From: a virus
Strand: one strand, 5' to 3'
Length of the DNA stretch: 34,094 bases
IMG/VR virus record: IMGVR_UViG_3300025855_000003
A model generated the notes under the pieces. That model was not told where the DNA came from and searched no databases. It was given only the letters and a program-made list of their open reading frames with translations. The first letter of the stretch is position 1; each line of letters begins with the position of its first letter. A program made the translations under genes and the position numbers. Positions 284 to 34,094 of the stretch are shown here, piece by piece.

Positions 284-1213
284 ATGGATTTAACTGAGTT
301 TAAGTGCTTTCTACTTGAAACTGGCAAATCCCAAGAAACTGTTGGGTATTATGCACGTTTGATTAATAGCTTTCTAAAATTCAATGATTTCAACGATGAA
401 AATTGTAAAAAATGGATTTTAGAAAAAACTCTGAAATTCTCTGCTTCTTGTAGAAATAAATATATTAGTGCATTCAAGGCTTATGCTATTTTTTTGGGAA
501 TGGATTTTGCTCAAAAATATAAAAGAATTGCTGAACATGCCGATGAATACGAAAGACTAACGATTGACGAAACTTGGAAACTAATTGAGTTTGATCCATA
601 CCCAAATAGAATGAGTGTTTTGTTTCTTGTTATAGCATCAACTGGATGCCGACCCTCAGAAGTTTTAAAGGCTCAAAAAAGGCATTTATCTTTCAGAATG
701 ATAAAGATTAAATCAAAGACAGGTGAGATCCGAAGAATTGCTTTGAATAGCTTTGTTTATCAAAAGGTTTTGGAGTATTTGGAAAATACACAGATTGACT
801 CAGAATATATTTTTCCAAATTATAAAGGCTTAGTAATGACAACTGCCGGACTTTCCAAAGAGTTTAGAAAAAGGCTTGACTTGCTTGGTATTTATAAAAA
901 CACCAGAGTTTATGATTTAAGACATTCGTATATTACAAGACAGGTGAGAAATAACCCTCTTCCACATGTTCAAACACAAGTTGGCCACAGAAAGCTAGAT
1001 ACTACCCAACATTATACGCATCCTGATGATCAAGATTTGCTTTTATTATCCGAGAGAGATTCTTTGTTTGCGGAAAATATGGATTCAACAGAACAACTTT
1101 CAGAATTAATTGAAGAAGTTAAAAGAAGAGGATTTTTTAATAATAAAAAGTTTGAATGGAAAATCAGTAAAAATTCTTTGTCTATTGCTATTCAAAAAAA
1201 AGTGATACAGTAA
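284..1213 (+). CDS. int: Tyrosine recombinase / phage integrase (Xer-like, short N-terminal core-binding domain)
   Basis: 309-aa ORF carrying the catalytic signature in order: GCRPSEVL (Arg), YDLRHSYITR (H/Y-x-x-R), GHRKLDTTQHYTH (His...Tyr nucleophile). It is the only long plus-strand backbone gene. Confidence 0.9.
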   Translation: MDLTEFKCFLLETGKSQETVGYYARLINSFLKFNDFNDENCKKWILEKTLKFSASCRNKYISAFKAYAIFLGMDFAQKYKRIAEHADEYERLTIDETWKLIEFDPYPNRMSVLFLVIASTGCRPSEVLKAQKRHLSFRMIKIKSKTGEIRRIALNSFVYQKVLEYLENTQIDSEYIFPNYKGLVMTTAGLSKEFRKRLDLLGIYKNTRVYDLRHSYITRQVRNNPLPHVQTQVGHRKLDTTQHYTHPDDQDLLLLSERDSLFAENMDSTEQLSELIEEVKRRGFFNNKKFEWKISKNSLSIAIQKKVIQ

Positions 1214-4685: not shown

Positions 4686-4732
4686 AAAAAAAGCGGTCTT
4701 ATTTCTAAGACCGCCCTTTTCATGGTTACGGA
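4686..4732 (-). terminator. Conserved CGTAACC box + GC hairpin + U-tract element, copy A
   Basis: Minus strand reads tccgtaaccatgaaaa GGGCGGTCTTA gaaa TAAGACCGC ttttttt. The SD and tail-fibre ATG follow 19 nt later. Confidence 0.8.
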
Positions 4733-14336: not shown

Positions 14337-14597
14337 GTGCAAAAAACAATTAAAAAAATCGGATACTTTAATTCTTTTTTGATTTCTATATGGTTTATTC
14401 CATTTTTTATTTCTATTGCTATATTTTTTAGTGTTTTAAATAAAAATTTATTTCAACTACTAGCTGATGGATTTATGGCTTTCCAGAATAATCCAAATGA
14501 TCTTGCTAGCTTAATCTCTGGTGGTTTGATTATTTTTGCCTCAATTCCGCTTTTTATTGCGGTTTTCACCAGAGTTAAAAGGAAAAACAAGTTTTAA
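14337..14597 (+). CDS. Small two-TM membrane protein (moron candidate)
   Basis: 86 aa with a GTG start 6 nt after a TATAAT hexamer (14325-14330) and no SD. There are two long hydrophobic helices. No competing minus-strand ORF exists here. Confidence 0.45.
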   Translation: MQKTIKKIGYFNSFLISIWFIPFFISIAIFFSVLNKNLFQLLADGFMAFQNNPNDLASLISGGLIIFASIPLFIAVFTRVKRKNKF

Positions 14598-14614
14598 TTT
14601 CTCCTTTTTAAAAC

Positions 14615-14661
14615 AAAAAAGCGGTCTTATTTCTAAGACCGCCCTTTATTTCGGTTACGGA
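14615..14661 (-). terminator. Conserved CGTAACC box + GC hairpin + U-tract element, copy B (orphan: no ORF follows)
   Basis: Minus strand reads tccgtaaccgaaataaa GGGCGGTCTTA gaaa TAAGACCGC tttttt gttttaaaaaggagaaatt. An AAA codon then occupies the position where copy A has its ATG. Confidence 0.75.
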
Positions 14662-14691
14662 TTGTTTAGTTGATCCCTAGCTTTTTGATAC

Positions 14692-14724
14692 AAAAAAAAC
14701 CGCACCAATAAACTATTGTGCGGT
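14692..14724 (-). terminator. Upstream hairpin of twin-hairpin module B
   Basis: Minus strand reads accgcacaat-agttt-attggtgcggt followed by tttttttt. Confidence 0.65.
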
Positions 14725-14820
14725 TCAGGACCAAGACAATGCTTGGGAAGAACTAAGTAACTATAACATGGGGTTTTTGCAAAAGTCAATAATAAGTGGT
14801 TTAATAAATAAAAGTTTAAA

Positions 14821-15105
14821 ATGATTGACTACAAAGAGAATAAAATCAAAGAAAAAAGAAAACTTGGTGATCCTAGACCAAAAACATGGATTATTCAATT
14901 AATCATAGGTGCTATTTTTAATTTCGTGATTGGCGGTGGAATTTTTGGAACAATAGGAACTATTCTCTTTTTGGTTGGATTTGCCAATTTTATTTTATTC
15001 ATTTACTTAAAAACAAAAAATATACCAGTTTTAAGATTTTTGGTACCAATTATTCTTATAGCAATAGTTCTTTTGATTGTAGCTAGCTTATTATCTGGTA
15101 GCTAA
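14821..15105 (+). CDS. Small polytopic membrane protein (moron / superinfection-exclusion candidate)
   Basis: 94 aa with a basic N-terminus followed by three hydrophobic helices. No SD. A TATAAC hexamer lies at 14762-14767. Confidence 0.55.
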   Translation: MIDYKENKIKEKRKLGDPRPKTWIIQLIIGAIFNFVIGGGIFGTIGTILFLVGFANFILFIYLKTKNIPVLRFLVPIILIAIVLLIVASLLSGS

Positions 15106-15111
15106 TTAGAG

Positions 15112-15402
15112 TTAGTAGCCTTTAAGAACGCAAGATTCGTTTAAATAACTCCACGCATCTTCGATATTTCCATAGCCATCTCCATCCATAAATAACTCAA
15201 TACTGTACATTGAATCTTCAACACTTCTGTATGTCGAAGAGAAACAATCTTCCATTCTTTTATTTTTCTCTTCTAGCTTTGAAATTTGCAATTCCAATGT
15301 CTCTTCTCTTGATTTAGAGGACTTCTTTAACTCTGGAGCAAAAGAGGCAAAAAAAGCAAAGGTTGCTAATAACGCGAAAGAAACTAATATACCTTTAAGC
15401 AT
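15112..15402 (-). CDS. Small secreted or membrane-anchored protein
   Basis: 96 aa with an N-terminal signal/anchor-like segment (LKGILVSFALLATFAFFASFA), followed by a coiled-coil segment and an acidic domain containing two Cys. Confidence 0.55.
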   Translation of the reverse strand: MLKGILVSFALLATFAFFASFAPELKKSSKSREETLELQISKLEEKNKRMEDCFSSTYRSVEDSMYSIELFMDGDGYGNIEDAWSYLNESCVLKGY

Positions 15403-15509
15403 TTGTTATTGGTATTCTATCAGAAAAAAACCAAGTGTTTAAAGTATAATAATACTAGAGATTATTTTAGTAATGGCACAAACAAATTTTTAAAATTTAA
15501 ACTAATAAT

Positions 15510-15926
15510 ATGAATCAAATCGAAGAAAACATTAAAAAACATCAACTCGAAGCTCATAAAAATAAAGTTTGGCAAGAGTATTCTAAATGGAGAGAAAATC
15601 CAGTTTATTGCCCAGCTTTAAAAGAAAAAGTAAATTTTACTTTGCGTGGGTGGAAACACACTGTTGGCGAAGACAAAAAGAGAACAATTGATGATATTCA
15701 AGTAAGACTGAGAATGATGTCAAAAGTGAGAGAAATTATTGAAAAATCCAATTTTATGCAAGATGTTGAATCGTTTGATGGCAAGATAAGGTACAGTTTT
15801 ATTGCGGTCGAAATGCTTAAGGAAGAAAGTGGATCAGCTTATACAAAACTCTTTGTGATCGTGGAAAAAGACAGCTATGGGAATCTCACTTTTTTATCAG
15901 TCTTTAGAAGAAGACCGAGACTCTAA
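15510..15926 (+). CDS. Hypothetical cytoplasmic protein, 138 aa (moron; function unknown)
   Basis: Clean 138-aa ORF on the strand opposite the backbone. It has no SD, and a TAAAAT hexamer ends 13 nt before the ATG. The basic C-terminus reads FRRRPRL. Confidence 0.6.
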   Translation: MNQIEENIKKHQLEAHKNKVWQEYSKWRENPVYCPALKEKVNFTLRGWKHTVGEDKKRTIDDIQVRLRMMSKVREIIEKSNFMQDVESFDGKIRYSFIAVEMLKEESGSAYTKLFVIVEKDSYGNLTFLSVFRRRPRL

Positions 15927-16003: not shown

Positions 16004-16046
16004 GAGAATTATACCAAATATGATATTGTTGTCAAACTAGCTGTAT

Positions 16047-16442: not shown

Positions 16443-16485
16443 AAAAAAAGCGAGCTATAAAGCTCGCCCTTGTTTATGGTTACGA
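16443..16485 (-). terminator. CGTAACC box + GC hairpin + U-tract element, copy C (variant stem)
   Basis: Minus strand reads atcgtaaccataaacaa GGGCGAGCT ttat AGCTCGC ttttttt. The SD (aaaggaa) and the ATG at 16424 follow. Confidence 0.75.
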
Positions 16486-18723: not shown

Positions 18724-18771
18724 AAAAAAAGCGGTCTTATTTCTAAGACCGCCCTTAATTTCGGTTACGGA
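18724..18771 (-). terminator. Conserved CGTAACC box + GC hairpin + U-tract element, copy D
   Basis: Minus strand reads tccgtaaccgaaattaa GGGCGGTCTTA gaaa TAAGACCGC ttttttt, 57 nt upstream of the scaffold ATG. Confidence 0.8.
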
Positions 18772-19401: not shown

Positions 19402-19556
19402 ATGGATTCAATCTCCCTTATTTCTTTTAATAAATTTCCTCTCTCTGAAGAGGAAAACTTTTTATATTGTTTTTCTGATCTAAGTTCTTTTTCTTGCTCT
19501 TTGACAAAATTGCGTTTTTTCTTAAATTTGAGTTTTTGATAATGTCTATCTTGCAT
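19398..19556 (-). CDS. Hypothetical very basic 52-aa protein (not in the ORF track)
   Basis: Translates as MQDRHYQKLKFKKKRNFVKEQEKELRSEKQYKKFSSSERGNLLKEIREIESI. It fills the portal-to-107-aa gap exactly, starting inside the last codons of the portal gene and ending in an ATGA overlap with the next gene. Confidence 0.45.
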   Translation of the reverse strand: MQDRHYQKLKFKKKRNFVKEQEKELRSEKQYKKFSSSERGNLLKEIREIESI

Positions 19557-21513
19557 TTCCTTGAGATATTTCTTGAAGTTCTTTCATTACTTCCGAAAAA
19601 GCCGGATCTTTGAAATCACCAATTGAAGAATTAGGGTTTGAATAATTAGCCGGTGGAGAGTAAGTAACTGGCGGATTAGAAGCACTAGGAACTACGCCAG
19701 GAGTTGATTGAGGTGGTGTGGTCGGTATTTCTTGAGCAGATGGAATATTATCTGGAGTATTTTGAGAAAACGCTGAGGGATTATTTTGTATTTCTTGCAA
19801 GATTTGTTTTACTAAACCTTGAACTTTTGGATCTTCTAGATTAAGAGGGTTTTCTCCATCTTCATTATTATCTGTGATAATTTTATCCCAATCGGATACA
19901 CCTGAAGAAATAACCCAACGTTTAATTAGTTCTCCAACATCAAGCGATTTATCACCAAGAGGAATCTTTCCACCTGAAGTTAAAGTGTCTAATGCACCAG
20001 GAATCTTCATCACAAAACCAATGATTTCTGTTAGAGTTTGGTTCTCCATGATCTCGTCTTTTTTGAGAGTAGAACCACGATCAATTTCATATCTGTATTC
20101 AACGTTGGCAATATCTTTGGGTTTGATTTTAACCATACCAGAATCGCCAGTTTCAAACATCTCAACAACGTCAGGAGCTACTTCTTTAACATTTAGAAGA
20201 TCTCTTTCTTTTAGATAGAGATTCATGGTTTTTTCTTGTTTTTTTGAAATTAAGTCAATCATTCTGTCAAAGACTTTTTCGATTCCGAGTTCGAGCATTC
20301 TTCGATCAAACTGAGTCTGCATTCCCTGAGTCATGGCTTGCATTTTCAAGGCTTGAGGAGTTTTTCCAAAACCAGGATCAACAGAGGAAGAAATGCTTGC
20401 ATCTGACGTTTGAGTAACTGTTAGCATCATTGCTTTTAAGAAGTTATATGTTGATTGAAACGCATCACTTGCTTGAGGAGAAACATTCATTTGAGCAACA
20501 CCATCAAAATTGCCTTTGCTCATTAGCCAAATCTGACCGGGCCCAATTCCATCTTTGAAATCATCCCAATTATCTACTGTGGAAGCATCAATCTTAAGTG
20601 GTGGGAAAATACCCATTTTAACACCATCCATGTATAAACTAATTAAACTACTTGAGGCAGAGTGAAGAGTCATTCCTCTTTCAAAATCGCCCAAGCCAAA
20701 GAATCTATCAATCAGAGGATATGAATGGCACATGATCACAGGGATTTTGCCATTCTTCTGAGGGTTAGGAATATCTCTCAATTCAAGATTGGAACCAGCG
20801 TGAAAAGTACGCCAGCGATCACCTTCATATCTAGAAATTAATTCAAATTCATCTTTTGTGGACATTGAGGTGTTGTCTTGTCTTTGAACAACACTTTGAG
20901 AATTTACATCACTTGGACCATCGCCTTTTGTTTTAAGAAGTTTATCAATGTTTTTCCAATACTTTTTATCTCTTGTTTCAAGCCATTTTTTGTTAACTCT
21001 GGATCTAATCCAAATATAATCGCTATCTTCAACTGTTGTTTTTCCAGATTGAGGAATAATATCTCTAGATGGTAAAAGAAAAAAATCTGGACCAGTATAG
21101 CCATTCTTGTTTGTTACAAAGTCAACTAAAACACCAAAAGAACCATAAACTTTTCTGTAAAAAGACCAAAGCCAAAGCTTTGTGAAGACATCAAATTGAG
21201 AAGTGGCATTTGGGATAACATGGTTATGTAGAATCAAATCCATGAATAAAGATTTGCCTTTATTTGCTTTAGTCATGGCAGTGATCTTGCCAGATGGCAT
21301 TTGTGCCATAATTTCATTGTTTTGTTTAAGAACTGAGGATAAAAGTGTTGGATCTGTTATTCTTGAGCTTGTTTCTTTTTGAGAAATCTGATCAACTGAT
21401 TGACTCATCAAAATGCGTTCTTTATCGTCAAAAGATTGATGAATTAAAGAAATAGCATCTAAATCTTTTCTGTATTCATCTAGAATTTCTTTTGTTTTAT
21501 CTGTTTCACTCAT
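19546..21513 (-). CDS. Portal protein
   Basis: 655 aa counted from MSETDK (ATG at 21513; the 7 upstream codons in the track run into the U-tract). Its size, its position just after the terminase genes (one small plus-strand ORF intervenes) and before the scaffold and capsid genes, and its Pro/Ser-rich C-terminal tail are typical of portals. Confidence 0.75.
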   Translation of the reverse strand: MSETDKTKEILDEYRKDLDAISLIHQSFDDKERILMSQSVDQISQKETSSRITDPTLLSSVLKQNNEIMAQMPSGKITAMTKANKGKSLFMDLILHNHVIPNATSQFDVFTKLWLWSFYRKVYGSFGVLVDFVTNKNGYTGPDFFLLPSRDIIPQSGKTTVEDSDYIWIRSRVNKKWLETRDKKYWKNIDKLLKTKGDGPSDVNSQSVVQRQDNTSMSTKDEFELISRYEGDRWRTFHAGSNLELRDIPNPQKNGKIPVIMCHSYPLIDRFFGLGDFERGMTLHSASSSLISLYMDGVKMGIFPPLKIDASTVDNWDDFKDGIGPGQIWLMSKGNFDGVAQMNVSPQASDAFQSTYNFLKAMMLTVTQTSDASISSSVDPGFGKTPQALKMQAMTQGMQTQFDRRMLELGIEKVFDRMIDLISKKQEKTMNLYLKERDLLNVKEVAPDVVEMFETGDSGMVKIKPKDIANVEYRYEIDRGSTLKKDEIMENQTLTEIIGFVMKIPGALDTLTSGGKIPLGDKSLDVGELIKRWVISSGVSDWDKIITDNNEDGENPLNLEDPKVQGLVKQILQEIQNNPSAFSQNTPDNIPSAQEIPTTPPQSTPGVVPSASNPPVTYSPPANYSNPNSSIGDFKDPAFSEVMKELQEISQGNAR

Positions 21514-21532: not shown

Positions 21533-21581
21533 AAAAAAAAGCGGTCTTATTTCTAAGACCGCCCTTAATTTCGGTTACGGA
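21533..21581 (-). terminator. Conserved CGTAACC box + GC hairpin + U-tract element, copy E
   Basis: Minus strand reads tccgtaaccgaaattaa GGGCGGTCTTA gaaa TAAGACCGC tttttttt gtgtcaaaaacaggatttt ATG (portal). Confidence 0.8.
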
Positions 21582-21616: not shown

Positions 21617-21796
21617 TCACGAATAAAAAGAATGTGTAATACTACTGGATAATCTAAAGCCTCTTAAAGATATATCTAGCCTGACTGATTCAGAAATCGA
21701 AATTGCTTTTTTGTTTTTTTCTATCCAGTCATGCAACTGATCTATTCTTTTTTTCTCAAGTGATTCTTGATTTTGAACAGGTGTAGTATTAAGCAT
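21617..21796 (-). CDS. Hypothetical 59-aa ORF (weak)
   Basis: Translates as MLNTTPVQNQESLEKKRIDQLHDWIEKNKK... It has no SD and is one codon under the ORF-track cutoff, so it could be a chance ORF. Confidence 0.2.
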   Translation of the reverse strand: MLNTTPVQNQESLEKKRIDQLHDWIEKNKKAISISESVRLDISLRGFRLSSSITHSFYS

Positions 21797-21820: not shown

Positions 21821-22156
21821 ATGAACAATTTAGCAACATATATTTCGCTTGATAATCTGCTACAAAACCTATCTCATGGCAAAGTTGAATTAGGACTCCA
21901 AGTGAGATCGGGATCTATTGTTTCAATGCTCGTTAGTGGCAAAAAAAGGCTTATTTATAACTCATCAAATAAAGACTTGAATACTAATCAAAAAGCCATA
22001 GAAGACATTGCTAGAAGGATCGTGCAACAACTAAAAAGCGGTGTTTCTAGTGAAATATCTTTCAAAATAAAGAACTTGGGAAATAAAATTAAATGGATTG
22101 AAATTGCCAGCGATCAAAACATTAATCTTAATAAAACTTCTTCATCTGTTGCATAA
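21821..22156 (+). CDS. Small opposite-strand protein, YezD/DUF2292-like N-terminal half (tentative)
   Basis: A 111-aa ORF fills the ~330-nt gap between TerL and portal on the opposite strand. The pattern LSHGKVELGLQVRSGSIVSMLVSGKKRL fits the 'G-x-V-x-h-x-V-x-x-G-x-h-V' signature I recall for YezD-like proteins. TATAAT (21805-21810) ends 10 nt before the ATG, and there is no SD. Confidence 0.5.
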   Translation: MNNLATYISLDNLLQNLSHGKVELGLQVRSGSIVSMLVSGKKRLIYNSSNKDLNTNQKAIEDIARRIVQQLKSGVSSEISFKIKNLGNKIKWIEIASDQNINLNKTSSSVA

Positions 22157-22790
22157 TGTTTTTTGCTACCTCTCTGGCCTTTGCCTGTTTTTCTGGTGAA
22201 GGGGGGAGAATAGGTCTTTCTGTCTGGTACATTTGCCAACCAATTGCCAAAGCCATTACTCCATCATCATGTTTGCCAGTAGAGGCTTGAGGTTTGCCAG
22301 TTCTGCTTTTAATAAATGTTTTGTGATGATCTAATAAATCTTGATCAAAGAAAGCAAAAGAATGAGAATCAAATTGACTTTTCCAATCGCCTGTTAAATA
22401 TGGCCTTGTTATAGAACTGGTTACCCAACCTAAGAGATTTGATTCCTCTTCTCCATCAATTTTGCCTCGATTTTTCATTACATAAAGCACATATTTATTC
22501 AATCTATTTAAAACTCTGAGTCTTTCCATTTCTGATGCACCACCATTATTTCTTTCAAAACCAACAACCGGAGGAACGCCAGTTAAATCAAACAAAAACT
22601 CCAAAGCTAAATGAATGTCTGGTGTCATGTCTGAGGCAACATCATTATTCCAATAAGTAATTGGTACATCAAGTTTGTTGTAGCTCATAAATGGAACGCA
22701 ATTTGAATCTCCACCACCTTGTGCGGTATCACCTGGAACAATAAAGAACTCTCCATATTCTATTTTTCTGAAGATTCTAAATTCTCCCAT
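22128..22790 (-). CDS. terL: Terminase large subunit, C-terminal RNase H-like nuclease domain (separate ORF)
   Basis: 220 aa with the acidic triad in the expected context: FIVPGDTAQGGGDSN, GFERNNGG, GKHDDGVMALAIG. It starts 14 nt before the stop of the ATPase ORF, in the +1 frame. Confidence 0.8.
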   Translation of the reverse strand: MGEFRIFRKIEYGEFFIVPGDTAQGGGDSNCVPFMSYNKLDVPITYWNNDVASDMTPDIHLALEFLFDLTGVPPVVGFERNNGGASEMERLRVLNRLNKYVLYVMKNRGKIDGEEESNLLGWVTSSITRPYLTGDWKSQFDSHSFAFFDQDLLDHHKTFIKSRTGKPQASTGKHDDGVMALAIGWQMYQTERPILPPSPEKQAKAREVAKNIMQQMKKFY

Positions 22791-23793
22791 AAATATCCTT
22801 TAGATTTGCTCCAACTATCAGAGGCTTCTTTATTAAACTTTGATAATACATAAGAGCTTCTTTGTTGAAATATGGATCTCCACCAAGCAAAAATGCTTCT
22901 GTGTCATAAGTTGGATATTCTCTTAACTCATCTAAATCAAACTCTTCATGATTTTTGGGGTTTCTAGTAGCGAGATGATGCCAATAGCATTGAGCCTTTG
23001 TAACTCCATACTCGACCATTATTTTGTTGTAATACTTTGGAACTATCCAATTAGGAGGTGGCTCTGTTGAGTATTCTTTATGCAACCACCAACTGAAGAA
23101 TCTGCTTTTATATCTGGCTCCTGGCAGTTTTCCGTTATCGTATTCAACTTGCCAATAATCACCAGTTAAATTTCCAGATGATTCTCTGAATATCTTGCCT
23201 GTGCCTGGTAGAACTTGCTTTTCTGCACCAGTTACCAGTTTTTTGGCATTCATTACTTCTGTGTTTGGATAGAAAGCAATCTCTGTAAAAAGAAGATTTT
23301 GCTTTGTACCACCACGACCTGACGTTTTGGCGTTAGCAGTAGCAGTGGAAAGAATAGATCCTTTGTTGCCTTCCATTTTCTGGCCAAGCTCATCAGATCT
23401 TAAATACATTTTTCTAAGTTTTGATAAATCCTGAGGATCATCTGTTTGAAAGTTTTTAATAAGCCATGAATTTAAAAAGTGGCTACATCTTGCAAAATGA
23501 ACATAAGTTTCTTCGTCTTTGTGAGAATAAATAACTGAATCAGTCAGGGGCATTTGACCAATTTCTGAAAGAATAAAATCAGTCATAAAAAAGCCAGCAA
23601 CCATTGTTGAGCCACCCCACTGACGAGCTTTGAGCCAATTTTCTCTTATGCCTTTAAAATCTGGATAATCTTTTTCTAGTTCTCTATAAACAAAGTTTTG
23701 TGTGTCATTGAAAATAAATGGAATTACTTCACCTTCTTTGTTAACTAGAGTAAAGTTTTCTTCAATAAATGCTTTGTAATCTACATATTGCAT
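22777..23793 (-). CDS. terL: Terminase large subunit, N-terminal ATPase domain (separate ORF)
   Basis: 338 aa from MQYVDY (ATG at 23793, SD aaggaaag). Walker A-like WLKARQWGGST and Walker B-like NLLFTEIAF are present. The ORF ends at TAG 22777. Confidence 0.8.
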   Translation of the reverse strand: MQYVDYKAFIEENFTLVNKEGEVIPFIFNDTQNFVYRELEKDYPDFKGIRENWLKARQWGGSTMVAGFFMTDFILSEIGQMPLTDSVIYSHKDEETYVHFARCSHFLNSWLIKNFQTDDPQDLSKLRKMYLRSDELGQKMEGNKGSILSTATANAKTSGRGGTKQNLLFTEIAFYPNTEVMNAKKLVTGAEKQVLPGTGKIFRESSGNLTGDYWQVEYDNGKLPGARYKSRFFSWWLHKEYSTEPPPNWIVPKYYNKIMVEYGVTKAQCYWHHLATRNPKNHEEFDLDELREYPTYDTEAFLLGGDPYFNKEALMYYQSLIKKPLIVGANLKDIYGRI

Positions 23794-23797
23794 TGCA

Positions 23798-24277
23798 TTA
23801 TCTTTCCTTGACGTATTTGGTCGAATTAAAGTTGAACTGTTGAAGTGGAGTAACAGGTGTTTGCGGAGAATCTGCCTCATTTGAGAGATTGCGACCGGCA
23901 ATTTTTTGCATGGCTTCCCAATAGCGAAAATCTGTTTTTGCTTTTTTGATGCCGATGTTATCCAATTTGGTTCTAACTATTGTCATTAAGTTTTTTCTTT
24001 CTTCTTCGTACCATTTGAGAAATCCAGGCTTTTTAATCCAGTCGTACCAGTTAGTTCTTTGTTGCCTACATTCCTTTGAAATTTCTGTGATGTTGTCTGT
24101 AACCAATTGTGCTGATGTAGCCACCCATAATCTCATTGCTGGAGTAGGTTTAAATGCCTCCTCTTCTGTTGGCATTACCGACAATTGCTTTGTATCAGTC
24201 TTTTTAGTTGCAACCTCACTTTTTATTTTTGAGATTATTGCTTTTGTGTTTGGTTTTGTTGGGCTTGGTTTTTGCAT
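23798..24277 (-). CDS. terS: Terminase small subunit (HTH-containing)
   Basis: 159 aa immediately upstream of TerL. It has a basic N-terminus and an HTH-like segment (TDNITEISKECRQQRTNWYDWIKKPGFLKWY). Confidence 0.65.
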   Translation of the reverse strand: MQKPSPTKPNTKAIISKIKSEVATKKTDTKQLSVMPTEEEAFKPTPAMRLWVATSAQLVTDNITEISKECRQQRTNWYDWIKKPGFLKWYEEERKNLMTIVRTKLDNIGIKKAKTDFRYWEAMQKIAGRNLSNEADSPQTPVTPLQQFNFNSTKYVKER

Positions 24278-24279
24278 AA

Positions 24280-25122
24280 TTACTTTTCAATTAAAATAAA
24301 TTGATCTAATGATTGGTCTGACTTAAAAATATATGGAAGTTGATTTTGCCATCCCATTTTTTGATAAAGTTTTGGAGTGAAATGGATTCCTTGCTGACCA
24401 ATGTAAAAACCACGATTAACAACTGCTGTCATTCTTTTGAACTTGGCTCTAAATAACGAAAAATCTTTGCCAGCATCTTGCGAACATTGAGTTTTGGTGA
24501 AATTATACTTTTTAAATAATTCTTGGATCTTTTCTCTGGGAATGTCTGAATAATCGACCTCTTCTATTAGCCTAAAATAGTCTTTGAAATACTCTTTGGC
24601 TATCTTCCATCGTCTGGAAATATAGCATTCTGCCCACCAATGAGTTTCTGCAAAAATTACTTTGTTAAGGGTTTTTTCTGTTGGCTTAGATAACTTCTTA
24701 AAGTTTAAATTAAAAGAATGAAGATCACTTCTATTGCCAAACTGATCGATTAGAACCCGGCATAGTCTAAAATAATCGGGAGAGAGTAAAACATCATCTT
24801 CAATTACCAAAAAATAGTCATATAAAGAAGACATTATTTCGTTAGCAGTAAATTGGTTTCTACCATTACCAACGTTTTGATCAACTCTTAAAATACTTCC
24901 GCCTTTGTCTAAATTTGATGATTTAAAAATAGAAATTGACTGCTCGATGTCTTCTTTTTTAGCTTTAATCTTTCCGGAAAATATATTTTTAAACCCATCT
25001 TGGAACAAATGAAATTTTGTGTTTTCTAAATACGATTGTTGTTCTAATGAATTAATTACTCTAGAAAGATATTTTGGTCTATTAAATGAAATGATGGCGA
25101 CTCCGATTTTGCCTTTATACAT
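24280..25122 (-). CDS. GT-A fold glycosyltransferase (GT2-like)
   Basis: IGVAIISFNRPKYLSRVINSLEQQ forms the N-terminal nucleotide-sugar-binding strand and helix, and FLVIEDDVLLSPDYF is a DxD-type motif. The ATG at 25122 is preceded by ggagg; the tracked start at 25128 is TTG. Confidence 0.75.
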   Translation of the reverse strand: MYKGKIGVAIISFNRPKYLSRVINSLEQQSYLENTKFHLFQDGFKNIFSGKIKAKKEDIEQSISIFKSSNLDKGGSILRVDQNVGNGRNQFTANEIMSSLYDYFLVIEDDVLLSPDYFRLCRVLIDQFGNRSDLHSFNLNFKKLSKPTEKTLNKVIFAETHWWAECYISRRWKIAKEYFKDYFRLIEEVDYSDIPREKIQELFKKYNFTKTQCSQDAGKDFSLFRAKFKRMTAVVNRGFYIGQQGIHFTPKLYQKMGWQNQLPYIFKSDQSLDQFILIEK

Positions 25123-26164
25123 TTTCAAAAACCTCCTTTACCCTTTTGATCATTGCTTTAAAATCAAACATTGTTTTCTCTTCCTCAAAAGCTCTTTGAT
25201 ACAAACATTGATTTAATTTGAGGGCTAAATCTTTATGATTGTTGAAGCTGGCAAAATATATGTTCTTCGCACCTGAAAAATTAGCAATCTCTCTCATAGT
25301 CGGATAGTTATAACAAACAACTGGTGTACCACAGGCAATTGCTTCCGCCATCCAAATGCCAAATCCTTCAAAGATTGCTCCGTTGATCATGACTGAGGCA
25401 CCTCTTATAAGTTCGAACTTTTCTTTTTCAGTGGCATTAAAATAAAAATCTGTCTGCTTATCCATTCGATAAGCCCGAACAATTTTCTTATAATCTATCT
25501 CCGATATAGAAGTGATAACTTTTAATCTTAAATTATTTTGTCTGCACGCCCATACAACGTGATCAAACTTTTTATTATGCACAAGCCTGGAAACAAAAAC
25601 TGCATAATTGTTTCTGTCTGGCTTCTTTGATTTTTTCTTAGCTTCAGAGTTTATGCTTGGATAAATTGGGAGCAATTGATCATCTGTTTTATTAAGCCAA
25701 TTATAGATGTATGGATGAGTTGCGTGGCACAAAGTGATTATTTTTACAGCAGGTTCTTTTAAAAGATTGGTTAGCTCAAGCCATCCACGAAAAGTTTTTT
25801 TCTTTAAGAATTTATAGATCATTGGTAAAGGATCAAAAAGTATTGGAAAGGCTTGTTTTTTGTACTTTAAAGCGTTTTTAATGGCACAAACATCACCATA
25901 AATTGGTGATCCAATATAAACATCAGCTTTGATTTTTAGAAAAGAAAGTTCTTTTTGAGTACAATCATGGACCACAAGTTTTGGCTTCTTATATGCTGAG
26001 AAGTAATTAAAAAATGTTGGCTCTGCGTTGGTGTGAATTGTTACATCGAAACCAGCTTCTTTTAAAGCAACTGCAATCATCCAAGAATAATATCTACCAC
26101 CGGTTAAATGGTTGTTATTCTCCGTTATTACAACAAATTTTTTCTTTTTATTGCTCGTTTTCAT
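25115..26164 (-). CDS. GT-B fold glycosyltransferase (GT4/GT1-like)
   Basis: It carries the E-x7-E motif in context: GASVMINGAIFEGFGIWMAEAIACGTPVV. The start is taken at MKTSNKKKKFVV (26164); the 7 upstream codons in the track read through the hairpin. Confidence 0.8.
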   Translation of the reverse strand: MKTSNKKKKFVVITENNNHLTGGRYYSWMIAVALKEAGFDVTIHTNAEPTFFNYFSAYKKPKLVVHDCTQKELSFLKIKADVYIGSPIYGDVCAIKNALKYKKQAFPILFDPLPMIYKFLKKKTFRGWLELTNLLKEPAVKIITLCHATHPYIYNWLNKTDDQLLPIYPSINSEAKKKSKKPDRNNYAVFVSRLVHNKKFDHVVWACRQNNLRLKVITSISEIDYKKIVRAYRMDKQTDFYFNATEKEKFELIRGASVMINGAIFEGFGIWMAEAIACGTPVVCYNYPTMREIANFSGAKNIYFASFNNHKDLALKLNQCLYQRAFEEEKTMFDFKAMIKRVKEVFENV

Positions 26165-26224
26165 AAAAAAAGCGACCACTCTCAAGTAAATGAGAAATGG
26201 TCGCCTAACTTCAATTAGTTACGA
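26165..26224 (-). terminator. CGTAAC box + hairpin + U-tract element, copy F (variant stem), directly abutting the GT-B ATG
   Basis: Minus strand reads tcgtaactaattgaagttag GCGACCAtttctcatttacttgagagTGGTCGC ttttttt ATG. The box begins right after the stop of the 55-aa ORF. Confidence 0.7.
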
Positions 26225-26392
26225 CTATTCCGGAAAAGTAGTGATGTGGCCCATCACGCTTTTTCCCTTTAAATTAATTTCTAGTTTAACACGATCATAA
26301 GATAAAATGAATGGAGCATACTTTTTGATCCAATCAATGAGATCAATCATTCTCTTTTCCACATCGAACTGATTATTTAATTTTTCATTCAT
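26225..26392 (-). CDS. Hypothetical 55-aa protein
   Basis: Start taken at MNEKLNNQF, in an ATGA overlap with the upstream gene's stop. Confidence 0.5.
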   Translation of the reverse strand: MNEKLNNQFDVEKRMIDLIDWIKKYAPFILSYDRVKLEINLKGKSVMGHITTFPE

Positions 26393-26706
26393 TTTTCTTC
26401 TAAAACTCCCTTTACTGCTTCCCAAAGAGCATCGCAAAGCTCTTTACAAATATATTTAACTTCTATCCTTTTTGGATGATTTAATACCCACTCATCAGTT
26501 ATAAAACTTTTAACAATACAAGCATTTCTTTTATTCTGCTCATCCAAAAATTCAATCATCTCTCCGATATTAAGCAAAGCTGTTTGATAATACTTTTCTG
26601 GCCAGTCCAAAGACGAAGATATGTTTATACCTAAATACTTGTGGAGTTTTTCTTTGGCTTTCGGTGATAGCTCGTCAAGTTGCTGTTTAGTGATGTTTTG
26701 TTTCAT
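26389..26706 (-). CDS. Hypothetical protein, 105 aa
   Basis: Clean ORF with a 4-nt overlap with the upstream gene. Confidence 0.6.
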   Translation of the reverse strand: MKQNITKQQLDELSPKAKEKLHKYLGINISSSLDWPEKYYQTALLNIGEMIEFLDEQNKRNACIVKSFITDEWVLNHPKRIEVKYICKELCDALWEAVKGVLEEK

Positions 26707-27041
26707 AACAAGTCCTTAATTGATAGAAATTCCCTCTTCATATGAAAGTCTTGATATTTGAATTTTTTCCAAAAAATAAATTTGTGCCACCATCTTGGAA
26801 CTAAACAATCAACTTTATGATCTAGAGAAATTGAGTAAATTGGAACTATCTCGCTTATCTTTTTTGATCCCTTGAGTTTTCTCTTATCTATATTTATTTT
26901 GAAATTTGCAGTTAAATCTTTTTTTCTTAGTTTAATAAATTCTTCTTTTTTGAAAACATAAGTAGGTCTTAGAAGACTAAATGCACTATCTAAAAAATTG
27001 TTTAGTGATGTTTTAAAATCTTTTTCTGCTGGATTTGACAT
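26703..27041 (-). CDS. Hypothetical basic protein, 112 aa
   Basis: Clean ORF, tightly packed against its neighbours. Confidence 0.6.
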   Translation of the reverse strand: MSNPAEKDFKTSLNNFLDSAFSLLRPTYVFKKEEFIKLRKKDLTANFKINIDKRKLKGSKKISEIVPIYSISLDHKVDCLVPRWWHKFIFWKKFKYQDFHMKREFLSIKDLL

Positions 27042-27042
27042 T

Positions 27043-27393
27043 CTATTTTCCTTTTAGCAAAAAATGCTTAGTTCTTCTGTATAAGTGAACTATTGGCAAA
27101 ATCATTTTTTCTAATAAATTGTTTTTTATTTTGCCACAATAAGCACAACCTAAAGTAGAATCACCAAATGTACCATGCTTTAGACATTCCCAAGACGGAT
27201 ATTTTTCAGCTTTACAGAGTTCATAGTTAATTTTTGGATTATAGAATGATACTACTGGGTTGATCTGGAAAAACTTTGGTATTGACAAGTCTTTTTTTTC
27301 ACCATCGATAATGCAATATCGTTCTACTAAAAAACCTTTCTTGTTATACTTATCTGTTATTTCTATAAAGCTATCATTTGTCAGTTTTGACAT
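27043..27393 (-). CDS. Hypothetical Cys-rich protein, 116 aa (possible Zn-binding)
   Basis: Contains ELCKAEKYPSWECLKHGTFGDSTLGCAYCGK. Confidence 0.6.
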   Translation of the reverse strand: MSKLTNDSFIEITDKYNKKGFLVERYCIIDGEKKDLSIPKFFQINPVVSFYNPKINYELCKAEKYPSWECLKHGTFGDSTLGCAYCGKIKNNLLEKMILPIVHLYRRTKHFLLKGK

Positions 27394-27411
27394 AGTGTTT
27401 TATTTAGTCAT

Positions 27412-27549
27412 CTACCAACATCTTCCTGGCATTGTATAGTTTATATTTTTAAGCACTTCACAATCAGCAAACCACCACAACCAAATTCCAATAGCAAAAA
27501 GTGTTACAAATATTAAAAAATAAATTGTTAATATCATTAATTCTTTCAT
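27412..27549 (-). CDS. 45-aa single-TM micro-protein (not in the ORF track)
   Basis: Translates as MKELMILTIYFLIFVTLFAIGIWLWWFADCEVLKNINYTMPGRCW. SD gaaagg lies 6 nt upstream, and the ORF fills an otherwise empty gap. Confidence 0.45.
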   Translation of the reverse strand: MKELMILTIYFLIFVTLFAIGIWLWWFADCEVLKNINYTMPGRCW

Positions 27550-27562
27550 ATCTACCTTTCTT

Positions 27563-27811
27563 TTATTTAGTTAGTAAGTCAGGATGTTTTTCTTCTAGCC
27601 ATTTACCAAGTTTAACAATTCTAATTGCTACATCTTTTTCAAAACTATCTTTTAATTTTTTTCTAGTGTCGTCATCAATAGCACCATAAAGGTCTGACAT
27701 AAGTCTTGTAGGAATATCAAGTGATTTAGTTCTTTCAAATCTTCCAACAAACCAACCAATAATCATCCAAACACTAAGTGCTTGTCTTGGTGTAAATTTA
27801 ATTTCTCTCAT
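27563..27811 (-). CDS. Hypothetical protein, 82 aa
   Basis: Clean ORF in the backbone orientation. The competing plus-strand ORF 27501..27689 looks like an antisense artefact. Confidence 0.55.
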   Translation of the reverse strand: MREIKFTPRQALSVWMIIGWFVGRFERTKSLDIPTRLMSDLYGAIDDDTRKKLKDSFEKDVAIRIVKLGKWLEEKHPDLLTK

Positions 27812-27836
27812 TCTTTCCTTTCTAACTTCTAAAACC

Positions 27837-28439
27837 CTATATTTTTATTGCTATTTTTTTCATTTGTTTTTCCTTAGCAAAAATCAAATTTGCTCCCAAT
27901 CTTTTAACTTCTTTGTACTCAGGCCAAGCACTGAGATATTGCTTAATTTCTTTATCTCTCTGGACCCCTAATGTATTAAATTCAATAATCATTATTTCTG
28001 GTGAATGCTTTCTTATGTCAAAAGACTTTAAAACGTTTATTTCGGCTCCTTCAACATCAATGCTCAGAATATCTATCTTGCCAATGCTTTGTGCTTTTAA
28101 AACTCTCTCAAGGGTTTTAGTTTCAATCCGAATCGAATTGTCTTCGTTGGTTTTACAAATCCTGCTTAAATCCAGCTTTTCTTGTTTAAAATAAACCGGA
28201 GTAGTGTCATAAATCACTGCTTTAACAACGTTTTTTCTTTCTTCTTTGAGTTTTTCGATTTGTCTAGAATCAGCATCTATACAAAGAACGTTCCAACCAA
28301 GTTTTTCAAAAAAATAAGAATTAGAAAGATGTTTTGGATCACCAGCTCCAACATCAACAAAGACACCATCTGTTTTCTGAGTAAAATTTTTGTAAATCCA
28401 GCGATCCTCGCCAAATTGTGAATAAAATGTTTTTTCCAT
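27837..28439 (-). CDS. FkbM-family SAM-dependent methyltransferase
   Basis: GVFVDVGAGDPKHLSNSYFFEKLGWNVLCIDAD is the SAM-binding motif I region, and IDILSIDVEGAEINVLKSF is characteristic of the FkbM / Methyltransf_21 family. Confidence 0.8.
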   Translation of the reverse strand: MEKTFYSQFGEDRWIYKNFTQKTDGVFVDVGAGDPKHLSNSYFFEKLGWNVLCIDADSRQIEKLKEERKNVVKAVIYDTTPVYFKQEKLDLSRICKTNEDNSIRIETKTLERVLKAQSIGKIDILSIDVEGAEINVLKSFDIRKHSPEIMIIEFNTLGVQRDKEIKQYLSAWPEYKEVKRLGANLIFAKEKQMKKIAIKI

Positions 28440-28440
28440 A

Positions 28441-28527
28441 TTAGTCTTTAAAAAGTTTGAATAGCAATATAGTTGTAATTATTGTTATTACGCCAGACAT
28501 TATGTCTGTAACCATTTTTTCAGTCAT
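28441..28527 (-). CDS. 28-aa hydrophobic micro-ORF (not in the ORF track)
   Basis: Translates as MTEKMVTDIMSGVITIITTILLFKLFKD. It has a strong SD (gaggagaaataacaatATG), an ATGA overlap with the upstream stop, and a stop 1 nt before the FkbM ATG. Confidence 0.4.
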   Translation of the reverse strand: MTEKMVTDIMSGVITIITTILLFKLFKD

Positions 28528-28712
28528 ATTGTTATTTCTCCTCGATTTTTTCTTTTTTTCCAGTATTTAAGGTGATTTGGTTGGTGAGCAATGCTTCTCT
28601 CAGCATGATTGGTTTTGTTGCAACTAACCTCTTCAGAAGGGAAAGAGTAAATTTTTGGGTTTTCACTTTCCCTTTTTAGTTCTTCTGGGCAAAAAGAAAG
28701 TCTTTCAGACAT
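28524..28712 (-). CDS. Hypothetical protein, 62 aa
   Basis: Clean ORF, tightly packed. Confidence 0.5.
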   Translation of the reverse strand: MSERLSFCPEELKRESENPKIYSFPSEEVSCNKTNHAERSIAHQPNHLKYWKKRKNRGEITI

Positions 28713-28714
28713 TT

Positions 28715-29056
28715 TTAATTTTTAGCCTCCTCAACTAAGTCATCCAACTTGATATTTGCAAACTCTAGTAGTTTTTCTGGAATTGTTTGGACCTGTTCGT
28801 TATTTACCACTTTTGGAATACCATAAATTGCCACCAACTCTTTGGTTGAGGGAATAAATGTTATGAGTAAAGCTCCAGCAATTATTGATACAACAAACCA
28901 TTTGCTATATTTTTTCGCAGGTTTCCAGTTTTCAGTAATACCTCCAAAAAAGAGAAGTGTGAGAAAACCAGAAAATCCTAGCGTTAGTAATCCAATTCCA
29001 ATTACGTCTGTTATCTTTGGCAAAGTGATTAACCAATAAATTTGTGTTTCTGACAT
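28715..29056 (-). CDS. Polytopic membrane protein, 113 aa
   Basis: Three hydrophobic helices followed by an acidic C-terminal tail. Confidence 0.6.
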   Translation of the reverse strand: MSETQIYWLITLPKITDVIGIGLLTLGFSGFLTLLFFGGITENWKPAKKYSKWFVVSIIAGALLITFIPSTKELVAIYGIPKVVNNEQVQTIPEKLLEFANIKLDDLVEEAKN

Positions 29057-33801: not shown

Positions 33802-34025
33802 TGCTGACCTCCATATCTCTCCTCAAGCATCTTCGCGGATGCACTAGAAGTTAACTCCAATCCTTTTGCTATTTCTGCATAGGTTAATGGAGAATGTTTT
33901 CTTAATAGGGAAATTGCTAAAGCTAATTTGTGAGAAACAAACTGAACAGAAAGTTTTGTCTGTGTATCAAGGTAATTTCTTAAGGTTTTTACCTGTTTTT
34001 TGTCTTCAGTGGTATAATTAGACAT
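33798..34025 (-). CDS. Small HTH DNA-binding regulator (first gene of the minus-strand early operon)
   Basis: 75 aa. LTYAEIAKGLELTSSASAKML is a classic helix-turn-helix. The start lies inside the terminal repeat, equivalent to position 58 of the left copy. Confidence 0.65.
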   Translation of the reverse strand: MSNYTTEDKKQVKTLRNYLDTQTKLSVQFVSHKLALAISLLRKHSPLTYAEIAKGLELTSSASAKMLEERYGGQQ

Positions 34026-34094
34026 GTGTTTACTCTTGTTAGTAGAGTCTTCACATGTCTTTCCTCTTTTGGTTTAGATCCTGGCCCGGGATCA
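33968..34094. repeat. Terminal direct repeat, right copy (identical to 1..127)
   Basis: Exact 127-nt identity with the window start. Confidence 0.9.

Follow-up and report, generated by a model that had tools for sequence, protein, structure and literature searches.

Glycosyltransferase (GT) cassettes that include a methyltransferase and lie in structural operons are already known from mycobacteriophages. In Corndog, a Cluster O mycobacteriophage, GT and methyltransferase genes are found within the structural module (PMC4351075); its gp35-38 correspond to an O-methyltransferase, two glycosyltransferases and a GlcNAc-transferase, and Che8 carries right-arm GTs. Che8 gp110 and Corndog gp38 are described as essential for capsid glycosylation, and the GTs of these phages are needed for this modification without being virion components (PMC12363180). 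The present report concerns a pair of GT genes, one of GT-B and one of GT-A fold, which together with the box-hairpin element in front of them (element F) occupy positions 24280-26224 of IMG/VR virus record IMGVR_UViG_3300025855_000003, a stretch of 34,094 nt referred to in full as the window. As in Corndog and Che8, soluble GT genes and a nearby methyltransferase gene lie in or beside the operon for virion structure and assembly, and Che8 is temperate, as is the window phage. Unlike in those phages, the enzymes lack detectable homology to the mycobacteriophage GTs and belong to a different phage lineage, the pair precedes terS and follows an element of terminator type, its host is uncultured and of low G+C, and virion glycosylation is a prediction made from the genes. 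The central finding is that the two genes are physically built into the transcription unit for packaging and late functions; for its acceptor, virion proteins are favoured by analogy with Corndog and Che8, with a probability of roughly 0.4.

Other described systems resemble the locus in part. The gtrABC genes of P22 and SfV, O-acetylases and TarP have signals of their own that drive expression in the lysogen; they usually lie near int/att, and gtrABC includes membrane proteins. Like these seroconversion systems, the window pair consists of GTs of a temperate phage, and TarP is also a soluble GT-A enzyme; unlike gtrABC and TarP, however, the pair has neither signals of its own nor transmembrane segments and is fused to the terminase genes, and no GtrA flippase, GtrB bactoprenol GT or serotype-specific membrane GT was found among the protein families of the window. 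Late cargo of lambdoid phages, such as stx downstream of PR'-tR', lies just after the first late terminator and is expressed on induction by read-through. The window layout is similar in architecture only, and no Q-like antiterminator or late promoter was identified in the window. Phage DNA-glycosylation clusters (T4 alpha- and beta-GT; Pyle et al.) likewise combine GT-A and GT-B enzymes, sometimes successive and often near terminase, ParB or methylase genes. Those of Pyle et al. are composed of a C5 methyltransferase, a 5mYOX/TET enzyme and a GT, and all such clusters require a source of hydroxymethyl-pyrimidine, which was not found in the window genome.

The features on which the argument turns are the following, in order of transcription:

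27837-28439, minus strand: FkbM-family S-adenosylmethionine methyltransferase (PF05050, E 1.7e-14; TIGR01444, 43.5 bits against a cut-off of 37.7)
26225-26392, minus strand: open reading frame (ORF) of 55 aa, whose stop lies 1 nt before the box of element F
26166-26223, minus strand: element F, made up of the CGTAAC box at 26223-26218, a hairpin of 15 bp at ~26205-26172 and the T7 run at 26171-26165
25115-26164, minus strand: GT-B fold glycosyltransferase, GT4-like, 349 aa, soluble; the first gene 3' of element F
24280-25122, minus strand: GT-A fold glycosyltransferase with an EDD motif at residues 108-110, 280 aa, soluble (family alignment, AlphaFold2, Foldseek)
23798-24277, minus strand: putative terS, 159 aa, assigned by position and size only
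22777-23793, minus strand: TerL-N, the large terminase ATPase domain as a separate ORF of 338 aa (AlphaFold2 and Foldseek)
22128-22790, minus strand: TerL-C, the large terminase nuclease domain as a separate ORF of 220 aa (phrog_24361 terminase, E 7.4e-9)

Distances between the reading frames were read straight from the sequence. The end of GT-B and the start of GT-A, which opens with its ATG, share 8 nt (ATGTATAA), the stop of GT-A is followed after 2 nt by the ATG of terS, 4 nt separate the terS stop from the TerL-N ATG (23793), and TerL-N and TerL-C overlap by 14 nt. An earlier note on this DNA, made from the sequence, had described the GTs as lying immediately upstream of terS in overlapping or abutting frames, which is borne out by the 8-nt overlap and the 2-nt gap, terS being recognised by its position. 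The putative terS has no family match and is kept at this position in the related phages L028-L031 and L054. Because there is no space for a promoter or a terminator from GT-B to TerL, joint transcription of the pair with the terminase genes can be inferred.

The first enzyme of the pair is a GT4-like GT-B protein. The listed ORF spans 25115-26185 on the minus strand, and the ATG at 26164, which gives 349 aa, is preferred as the likely true start because the closest homologues have 349 aa and the same start. The protein matches PF00534 (Glycos_transf_1) with E 4.2e-21 and 75.7 bits (cut-off 26.4), PF13692 with E 8e-10 and 39.5 bits (cut-off 27) and, over residues 16-313, the glycosyltransferase family PHROG 2170. 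The EX7E motif is found in the C-terminal domain (EGFGIWMAE, residues 266-274), as proposed before. No transmembrane segments are present in GT-B or GT-A (maximum KD19 of 1.28 and 0.96, respectively). A tblastn search with GT-B returned two weak partial matches in a collection of 50,697 phage records, and GT-A returned none. GT4-type GT-B enzymes are retaining by family rule.

The second enzyme is more distant from the families represented in Pfam. Its listed ORF covers 24280-25128 on the minus strand; the likely true ATG is at 25122, with AAGGAGG 8 nt 5' of it, which yields the 280 aa that are also the length of the homologues. The match to Pfam Glycos_transf_2 (E 0.0019, 18.6 bits) falls under the cut-off of 23.3, the window protein has no match to Pfam GNT-I, MGAT2 or TAGT, and sequence and profile searches of the PDB gave marginal GT-A matches only (SpsA, E 0.019). 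Database searches retrieved 47 clusters of about 280 aa, all of them from phage-sized metagenomic contigs. In the family alignment, E110 and D112 are invariant and D111 is conserved in at least 90% (the EDD motif); further invariant positions are H163, SQD216-218, R232, NR238-239 and H249, and conserved blocks include HWWAE, SQDxGKD and VNRG..G..G.H. Pfam assigns 11 of 37 family members to GT2 (E<0.01), five of 37 weakly to MGAT4 and three of 37 to MGAT2. The AlphaFold2 model reaches a predicted local distance difference test (pLDDT) score of 95.4, and Foldseek places MGAT2 (5vcm, E 4.7e-10) first, followed by GnT-I and POMGnT1 (to 1e-8), all at template modelling scores of 0.5-0.6, and then by SpsA; TarP, a prophage wall-teichoic-acid GT, and others appear at lower ranks. 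There are 331 PDB matches at E<=0.001, and the 50 listed are GT-A enzymes throughout. According to the model, the protein is thus a GT-A enzyme with a DxD-type motif whose fold appears nearer to GT13/GT16 than to a typical GT2. The GT-A fold and the DxD-type motif expected by the earlier note hold in the form of EDD, and its 'GT2-like' label is approximate, given the sub-threshold Pfam match. EDD-motif GT-A enzymes of GT13/GT16-like fold are inverting by family rule.

The GT-A domain itself is widespread: an exhaustive profile search returned 346 representative clusters at E<=1e-30, a number that rises to 1,396 at E<=1e-10. Long multidomain proteins are numerous among them, including one with a C-terminal O-methyltransferase domain. 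The domain family is therefore broad, with only the clade of about 280 aa being phage-borne. A GT4 domain that had been suspected by eye in one long fusion protein (P0309) was not confirmed by a GT-B hidden Markov model or a PDB search and was left unused. Whichever acceptor holds, this is a large GT-A domain family poorly covered by Pfam.

The control of the pair is best approached through element F, which belongs to a repeated type. The elements and one further ORF are:

4687-4730, 14615-14659, 16444-16484, 18725-18769, 21535-21579 and 26166-26223, all minus strand: the six box-hairpin elements
21617-21796, minus strand: ORF of 59 aa, directly upstream of the portal-proximal box-hairpin element

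The pattern CGTAAC-N5-15-GGCG-hairpin-CGCTTTTTT has these six matches in the window, all on the minus strand, against 0.00 expected from 100 shuffles. Common to the six are a CGTAAC(C) box, an A-rich spacer, a G+C-rich hairpin that starts with GGCG and a run of 6-8 T, and each lies just upstream of the ribosome-binding site or start codon of a late gene, the other five preceding late blocks. The copy that diverges most from the others is element F, for which folding gives a stem of 15 bp with U7 after it (dG -24.9 kcal/mol, z -3.1). By sequence, the six are canonical intrinsic terminators with an extra conserved box, and their termination activity is predicted. Orthologous copies in L031, L054 and L005 keep box and hairpin and show compensatory changes in the stem, and element F itself is conserved in L028 and L031, where CTCA/TGAG is replaced by CCCA/TGGG. 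No match to Rfam was found anywhere in the window, element F included, and scans of IMG/VR and a metagenome collection with the exact pattern returned a single locus that was already known, along with two doubtful matches. The base 5' of the CG in the box can pair with the base 3' of the GCG in the 5' arm of the hairpin in 16/16 copies (T-A in 8, C-G in 6 and wobble in 2), so that the box mimics the end of the 3' arm; such mimicry could reflect an antiterminator/terminator alternative or a protein-binding site.

The T7 run of element F touches the ATG of GT-B, which leaves no room for a separate GT-B promoter. From 34 kb to 26.2 kb, no comparably strong minus-strand terminator lies 5' of element F, which is thus the first strong terminator met after the non-structural genes. 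The small ORFs in front of it are contiguous, the 55-aa ORF overlapping the stop of its predecessor (ATGA). Further upstream, an apparent gap at 27393-27563 is filled by an unlisted ORF of about 45 codons (27405-27546, minus strand), which encodes a hydrophobic membrane peptide (MKELMILTIYFLIFVTLFAIGIWLWWFADCEVLKNINYTMPGRCW) and lies upstream of a Cys-rich ORF of 116 aa (27043-27393). The simplest reading of this arrangement is that the GT-terminase block would be reached by read-through or antitermination at element F. The earlier note had treated element F as the box-hairpin element that precedes each late block; it is indeed one of the six, and it looks like a terminator and point of read-through, with no obvious promoter.

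The 55-aa ORF provides a second link to the late region. BLASTP shows it to be paralogous to the 59-aa ORF that precedes the portal-proximal element (40% identity over 48 aa, E 1e-8). In L031 a homologue lies upstream of GT-B, and in L054, which has no GTs, the portal gene is the only one with such a homologue upstream of it. The unit of small ORF and element before GT-B therefore appears to be a duplicate of the portal-proximal unit, and the placement of the cassette behind a duplicated late-region control unit supports its co-regulation with virion genes. The 55- and 59-aa ORFs are candidate cis-linked regulators or leader-like ORFs.

Among relatives, the arrangement is conserved over a limited range. 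In L028-L031 (74-91% GT-A identity), the order is small ORF, element F, GT-B, GT-A, terS, TerL-N, TerL-C and portal, and in L005 (60% identity) the pair precedes tail genes, with no element in front. GT-B and GT-A are inherited together and coupled in every relative whose GT-A is at least 44% identical and whose upstream sequence is available. No GT is found upstream of terS in the TerL-N relatives L054 (65%), L055 (a 152-kb Saccharimonadales contig), L063 and L064, nor in L061, which was found through its coat protein; by this comparison, the pair is accessory cargo. Other cassettes are found directly after the major capsid gene in L056 (8403-9755), L057 (10275-13687) and L063 (13110-15084). 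They consist of a TPR GT4-like protein, a GT2 and a methyltransferase, or of a double GT2 and a methyltransferase, and are non-homologous to the window pair; the L057 cassette, considered as a possible homologue, showed no homology and is treated as analogous only. The early region of L064 contains GroES/GroEL.

The two enzyme families also occur together beyond this lineage, in phages with HK97-type capsids and PF04860 portals. Their cassettes are larger and lie between recombination genes and terminase genes, with extra GT2s, NAD-dependent epimerase/dehydratases and Methyltransf_24, and single ones add DegT, FdtA, UDP-glucose dehydrogenase or a sulfotransferase. Glycan-building cargo of the late region thus appears to be recurrent in these phages, the window pair being one accessory version of it.

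Cellular homologues inform on the chemistry of the pair. Bacteroidota chromosomes encode GT-A homologues with 21-27% identity, and FkbM lies directly downstream of such a distant homologue in at least five of these chromosomal loci. The locus at 7166-15600 of L027 comprises Wzm, Wzt (with Wzt_C, a C-terminal carbohydrate-binding domain), a 237-aa protein, a GNT-I-like GT-A, FkbM, a polysaccharide deacetylase, a GT4 and two GT2s, and its GT-A homologue passes Pfam GNT-I with 30.6 bits (cut-off 25.4). This conserved locus is also present in L013, L014, L016, L018, L020, L023 and L024. By its gene content, the Bacteroidota locus encodes an ABC-transporter-dependent polysaccharide pathway that contains the same enzyme trio as the window, which supports a GT-A that extends rather than starts a glycan and makes methylation a natural partner reaction. 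The likeness ends with the three enzyme types, since the L027 locus has Wzm/Wzt export, a deacetylase and further GT2s and the phage lacks export or lipid-carrier genes. In the window, the FkbM gene is located 1.65 kb upstream of GT-B and 5' of element F; it is present in L028, whereas the 3.9 kb that precede the pair in L031, a relative with 74% identity, yielded no such gene. Its family and place agree with the proposal that a methyltransferase about 1.7 kb upstream could methylate the sugar, and its location outside the unit and its absence there in L031 make it a possible, non-obligate partner.

Taken together, these features suggest the following role. The two ORFs would form a translationally coupled GT cassette, an accessory cargo with which the packaging/head transcription unit begins at its 5' end. 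Its mRNA would be made only on terminator read-through, that is, with the terminase genes in lytic growth and not in the lysogen. Both soluble enzymes would act successively in the cytoplasm, using nucleotide sugars to assemble a short glycan with two or more sugar units; a sequential reaction is suggested by the enzyme families, by the cellular cousins in Wzm/Wzt loci and by the GT-A/O-methyltransferase fusions. FkbM may O-methylate the glycan. The acceptor, which is the least secure step, would be abundant late in infection, most probably virion proteins, and these are favoured because of the late wiring, the soluble cytoplasmic enzymes and the capsid-adjacent cassettes of relatives, one of which contains a TPR domain. 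TPR is a protein-interaction domain.

Within the virion, the candidate acceptor is an 8-residue tail at the C-terminus of the coat protein. The coat of the window phage (16556-17812, minus strand) ends in ..SGQAELDITS and that of L031 (12192-13448) in ..SGQAELDYNS, both with 8 extra residues (QAELDITS and QAELDYNS, respectively), while the coats of the GT-less L054 (10443-11672) and L061 (10001-11236) lack this tail and end in ..IAG or ..LSG. Capsid and tail-tube subunit C-termini are reported glycan sites in mycobacteriophages (PMC12619734), and the coat tail is put forward as a hypothetical glycosylation site. The portal (19546-21510, minus strand) has a low-complexity linker around residues ~590-630, with 57% Pro/Ser/Thr over 40 aa. 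The portal linkers of relatives are Pro/Gln-rich with or without GTs, and the C-terminal tail of the portal was rejected as an acceptor, given that the tail of the GT carrier L031 is P/Q-rich without S/T and that GT-less relatives are also of low complexity.

Several observations weigh against virion proteins as the acceptor. The correlation with the coat tail compares two phages with two, and the GT carriers are sister taxa (75% coat identity), so that a single event may account for it and it does not speak for selection. In many phages the region just upstream of terS is a common hot spot for cargo, which makes position weak evidence of function, and the late timing is inferred from gene architecture. 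There is no sequence homology to the mycobacteriophage GTs, the integrase marks the phage as temperate, and the literature on Patescibacteria phages reads such genes as host-surface auxiliary metabolic genes (PMC12911398, PMC12647753). Both GT families are found in phages with unrelated capsids and portals (L001, L004, L006, L011, L033 and L035), for which a shared host-derived acceptor is at least as simple an explanation. Moreover, judging from the cellular loci, the ancestral acceptor of GT-A was probably a lipid-linked glycan. The claim that the genes are expressed late with the virion genes, and not for seroconversion, agrees with the wiring and with the lack of a gtr layout; the computed features fit virion proteins and a host lipid-linked or wall glycan alike as acceptor.

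Of the alternatives, a glycan of the host envelope survives best. The GTs would then act at the cytoplasmic face and cap or branch a host lipid-linked glycan or wall polymer, candidate targets being a polysaccharide, a teichoic-acid-like polymer or an S-layer or pilin glycan precursor, and the effect would be to mask the receptor on infected cells and debris or to change surface properties. This is a possible reading, with a probability well short of even. The joint occurrence of GT-A, FkbM and GT4 homologues in Bacteroidota Wzm/Wzt polysaccharide loci speaks for it, as do the multidomain members of the GT-A domain family; the GT-A/O-methyltransferase fusion among them has an architecture that seems typical of polysaccharide synthases. 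It would also fit the sugar-modifying neighbours in other phages (epimerase/dehydratase, DegT aminotransferase, FdtA, UDP-glucose dehydrogenase and sulfotransferase), the spread of the cassette over phages with unrelated virion modules, the integrase, the appearance of TarP among the structural matches of GT-A and the way in which GTs of candidate phyla radiation phages have been read (PMC12911398, PMC12647753). However, with no separate promoter or terminator and fused as it is to terS and TerL, the pair would bring the terminase with it if expressed in the lysogen. It is not near int/att, the integrase gene lying some 23 kb away, the genome was not found to encode a flippase, membrane GT or transporter as a partner, and a late-phase start leaves little time before lysis. 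The GT/methyltransferase cassettes that relatives carry directly after the capsid gene, one with a TPR domain, also point away from the envelope.

An acceptor of another kind, such as a small molecule, a host protein or a defence signal, or the lack of any joint pathway, with a role in counter-defence or host takeover and the late position being incidental, is improbable. It is suggested by the sub-threshold match of GT-B to the Pfam family 'GT4 in conflict systems' (E 2.8e-5, 23.7 bits, cut-off 26), by the nearest PDB sequence matches of GT-B, which act on small molecules (UDP-glucose:tetrahydrobiopterin glucosyltransferase, E 3e-4), and by the variability of the cassette among relatives. The conflict-system match, however, is limited to the generic EX7E region, the two GTs are tightly co-inherited and translationally coupled in relatives of at least 44% GT-A identity, and the glycan-building context of the homologues favours a shared glycan pathway.

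DNA hypermodification, in which the GTs would glycosylate 5-hydroxymethylcytosine or 5-hydroxymethyluracil in phage DNA just before packaging, is very improbable, since no source of a hydroxymethyl base was found in the complete genome, GT-A has no TAGT match, and its best structures are glycan-extending MGAT/GnT enzymes and not JGT or the T4 GTs. The idea draws on the adjacency of the pair to terS/TerL, a frequent site of DNA methylases, and on neighbours of the cassette in other phages, namely a ParB-N6/N4 methylase in L001, a C5 DNA methylase in L004 and a TAGT-family protein with ParB in L006. The Pfam TAGT-family protein of L006 (12937-13575) lies beside a ParB-like gene and terS, and no TET/JBP gene was seen in 21 kb of this locus. 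Documented phage DNA GTs have GT-A and GT-B folds with TarP-like and BshA/MshA-like structural neighbours, and yet about 65% of surveyed GT contigs had no base-modification genes and were judged less likely to act on DNA (bioRxiv 10.1101/2023.12.21.572611). Tet_JBP is not among the 25 most frequent of 64 neighbour families in 14 related phage loci, and a ThyS-like hydroxymethylase, a dNMP (deoxynucleoside monophosphate) hydroxymethylase, TET/JBP (5mYOX) and a C5 methylase were all missing from the window ORFs by Pfam and PHROG, ORFs of <70 aa having been partly scanned. The earlier conclusion against hypermodification holds; its argument had omitted the post-replicative route through a C5 methylase and TET, the genes for which are also absent.

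The terminase genes next to the pair have their own distinctive organisation. TerL-N has no match by sequence or profile, the PDB included, and was recognised from its AlphaFold2 model (pLDDT 81.7), for which Foldseek returned the T4 gp17 ATPase first (2o0j, E 1.8e-10), followed by the P74-26, HK97 and Sf6 terminases. Its Walker A-like segment, RQWGGST, is without the usual lysine. Homologues form more than 300 clusters, all of about 335 aa, which argues that the division of TerL is lineage-wide and no sequencing error; a split TerL is also found in L028, L029, L031, L054-L057, L063 and L064, and phrog_38407 covers both parts. The two products may be joined by frameshifting or may work as two subunits. 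A plus-strand gene of 111 aa (21821-22156) separates TerL-C from the portal block, shares 29 nt with the 3' end of TerL-C and occupies the same place and orientation in L029 and L031.

The first and last 127 nt of the window are identical (1-127 = 33968-34094, an exact terminal repeat), so that the window as a whole represents a phage genome that is complete at about 33,967 bp and has either been assembled as a circle or is terminally redundant. Its G+C content is about 35%, no tRNA genes are present in the window, and nearly every gene is on the minus strand. One feature stands apart:

284-1213, plus strand: tyrosine integrase (E 1.2e-20), the only large plus-strand gene near the left end

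On the integrase gene, the phage is called temperate. In order of transcription, the first block contains replication/early genes (a DnaD-like loader, an SSB-like protein and DUF1064), followed by a series of small ORFs, including the FkbM methyltransferase, and by the GT pair. On the 3' side of the pair come the terminase genes, an SU10-type portal, a scaffold-sized gene and a P22-type coat (PF11651, E 3e-37), and the last minus-strand block encodes large tail/injection proteins, a tail fibre and a CHAP-domain lysin. An extended sigma-70-type promoter matching 12/12 (TTGACA-16-TG-TATAAT, 16008-16035, minus strand) stands between the head and tail modules and adjoins an island at 14337-15926 with plus-strand ORFs at 14821-15105 and 15510-15926, the latter with a weak LPD3 match; promoter and small-ORF island may constitute a separately expressed moron region. 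No DNA-level resemblance to cultured phages was found for window positions 22000-29000. The labels of metagenome-assembled genomes attached to GT-A contigs conflict (Gammaproteobacteria, Saccharibacteria, Thermoplasmatales and unclassified), and the sole hint of an integrated relative is the TerL-N homologue on the 152-kb Saccharimonadales contig; the host is uncultured and possibly a Patescibacterium.

The fullest form of the virion reading is more doubtful than the acceptor assignment. It holds that virion glycosylation exists outside actinobacteriophages, where the phage-borne clade of an uncharacterised GT-A family and a GT4, with an optional methyltransferase, would decorate the coat tail and perhaps other virion proteins under read-through gating. 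The phages concerned would be small and temperate, their terminase split and their portal of SU10 type, and would infect uncultured, possibly Patescibacterial, hosts. To our knowledge, experimentally shown virion glycosylation is limited to a few mycobacteriophages, where antibody recognition changes. The practical significance of the finding is moderate. If host glycans were modified instead, the locus would represent surface remodelling gated to the late phase and not to lysogeny. If the cassette is virion-directed, it would be a compact two-enzyme system with a candidate acceptor peptide, and if its analogues in related phages have the same target, virion glycosylation would be found in environmental phages with uncultured hosts as well. 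The non-orthologous GT/methyltransferase cassettes at three positions of late modules would then mean that virion glycosylation is widespread and has been repeatedly acquired.

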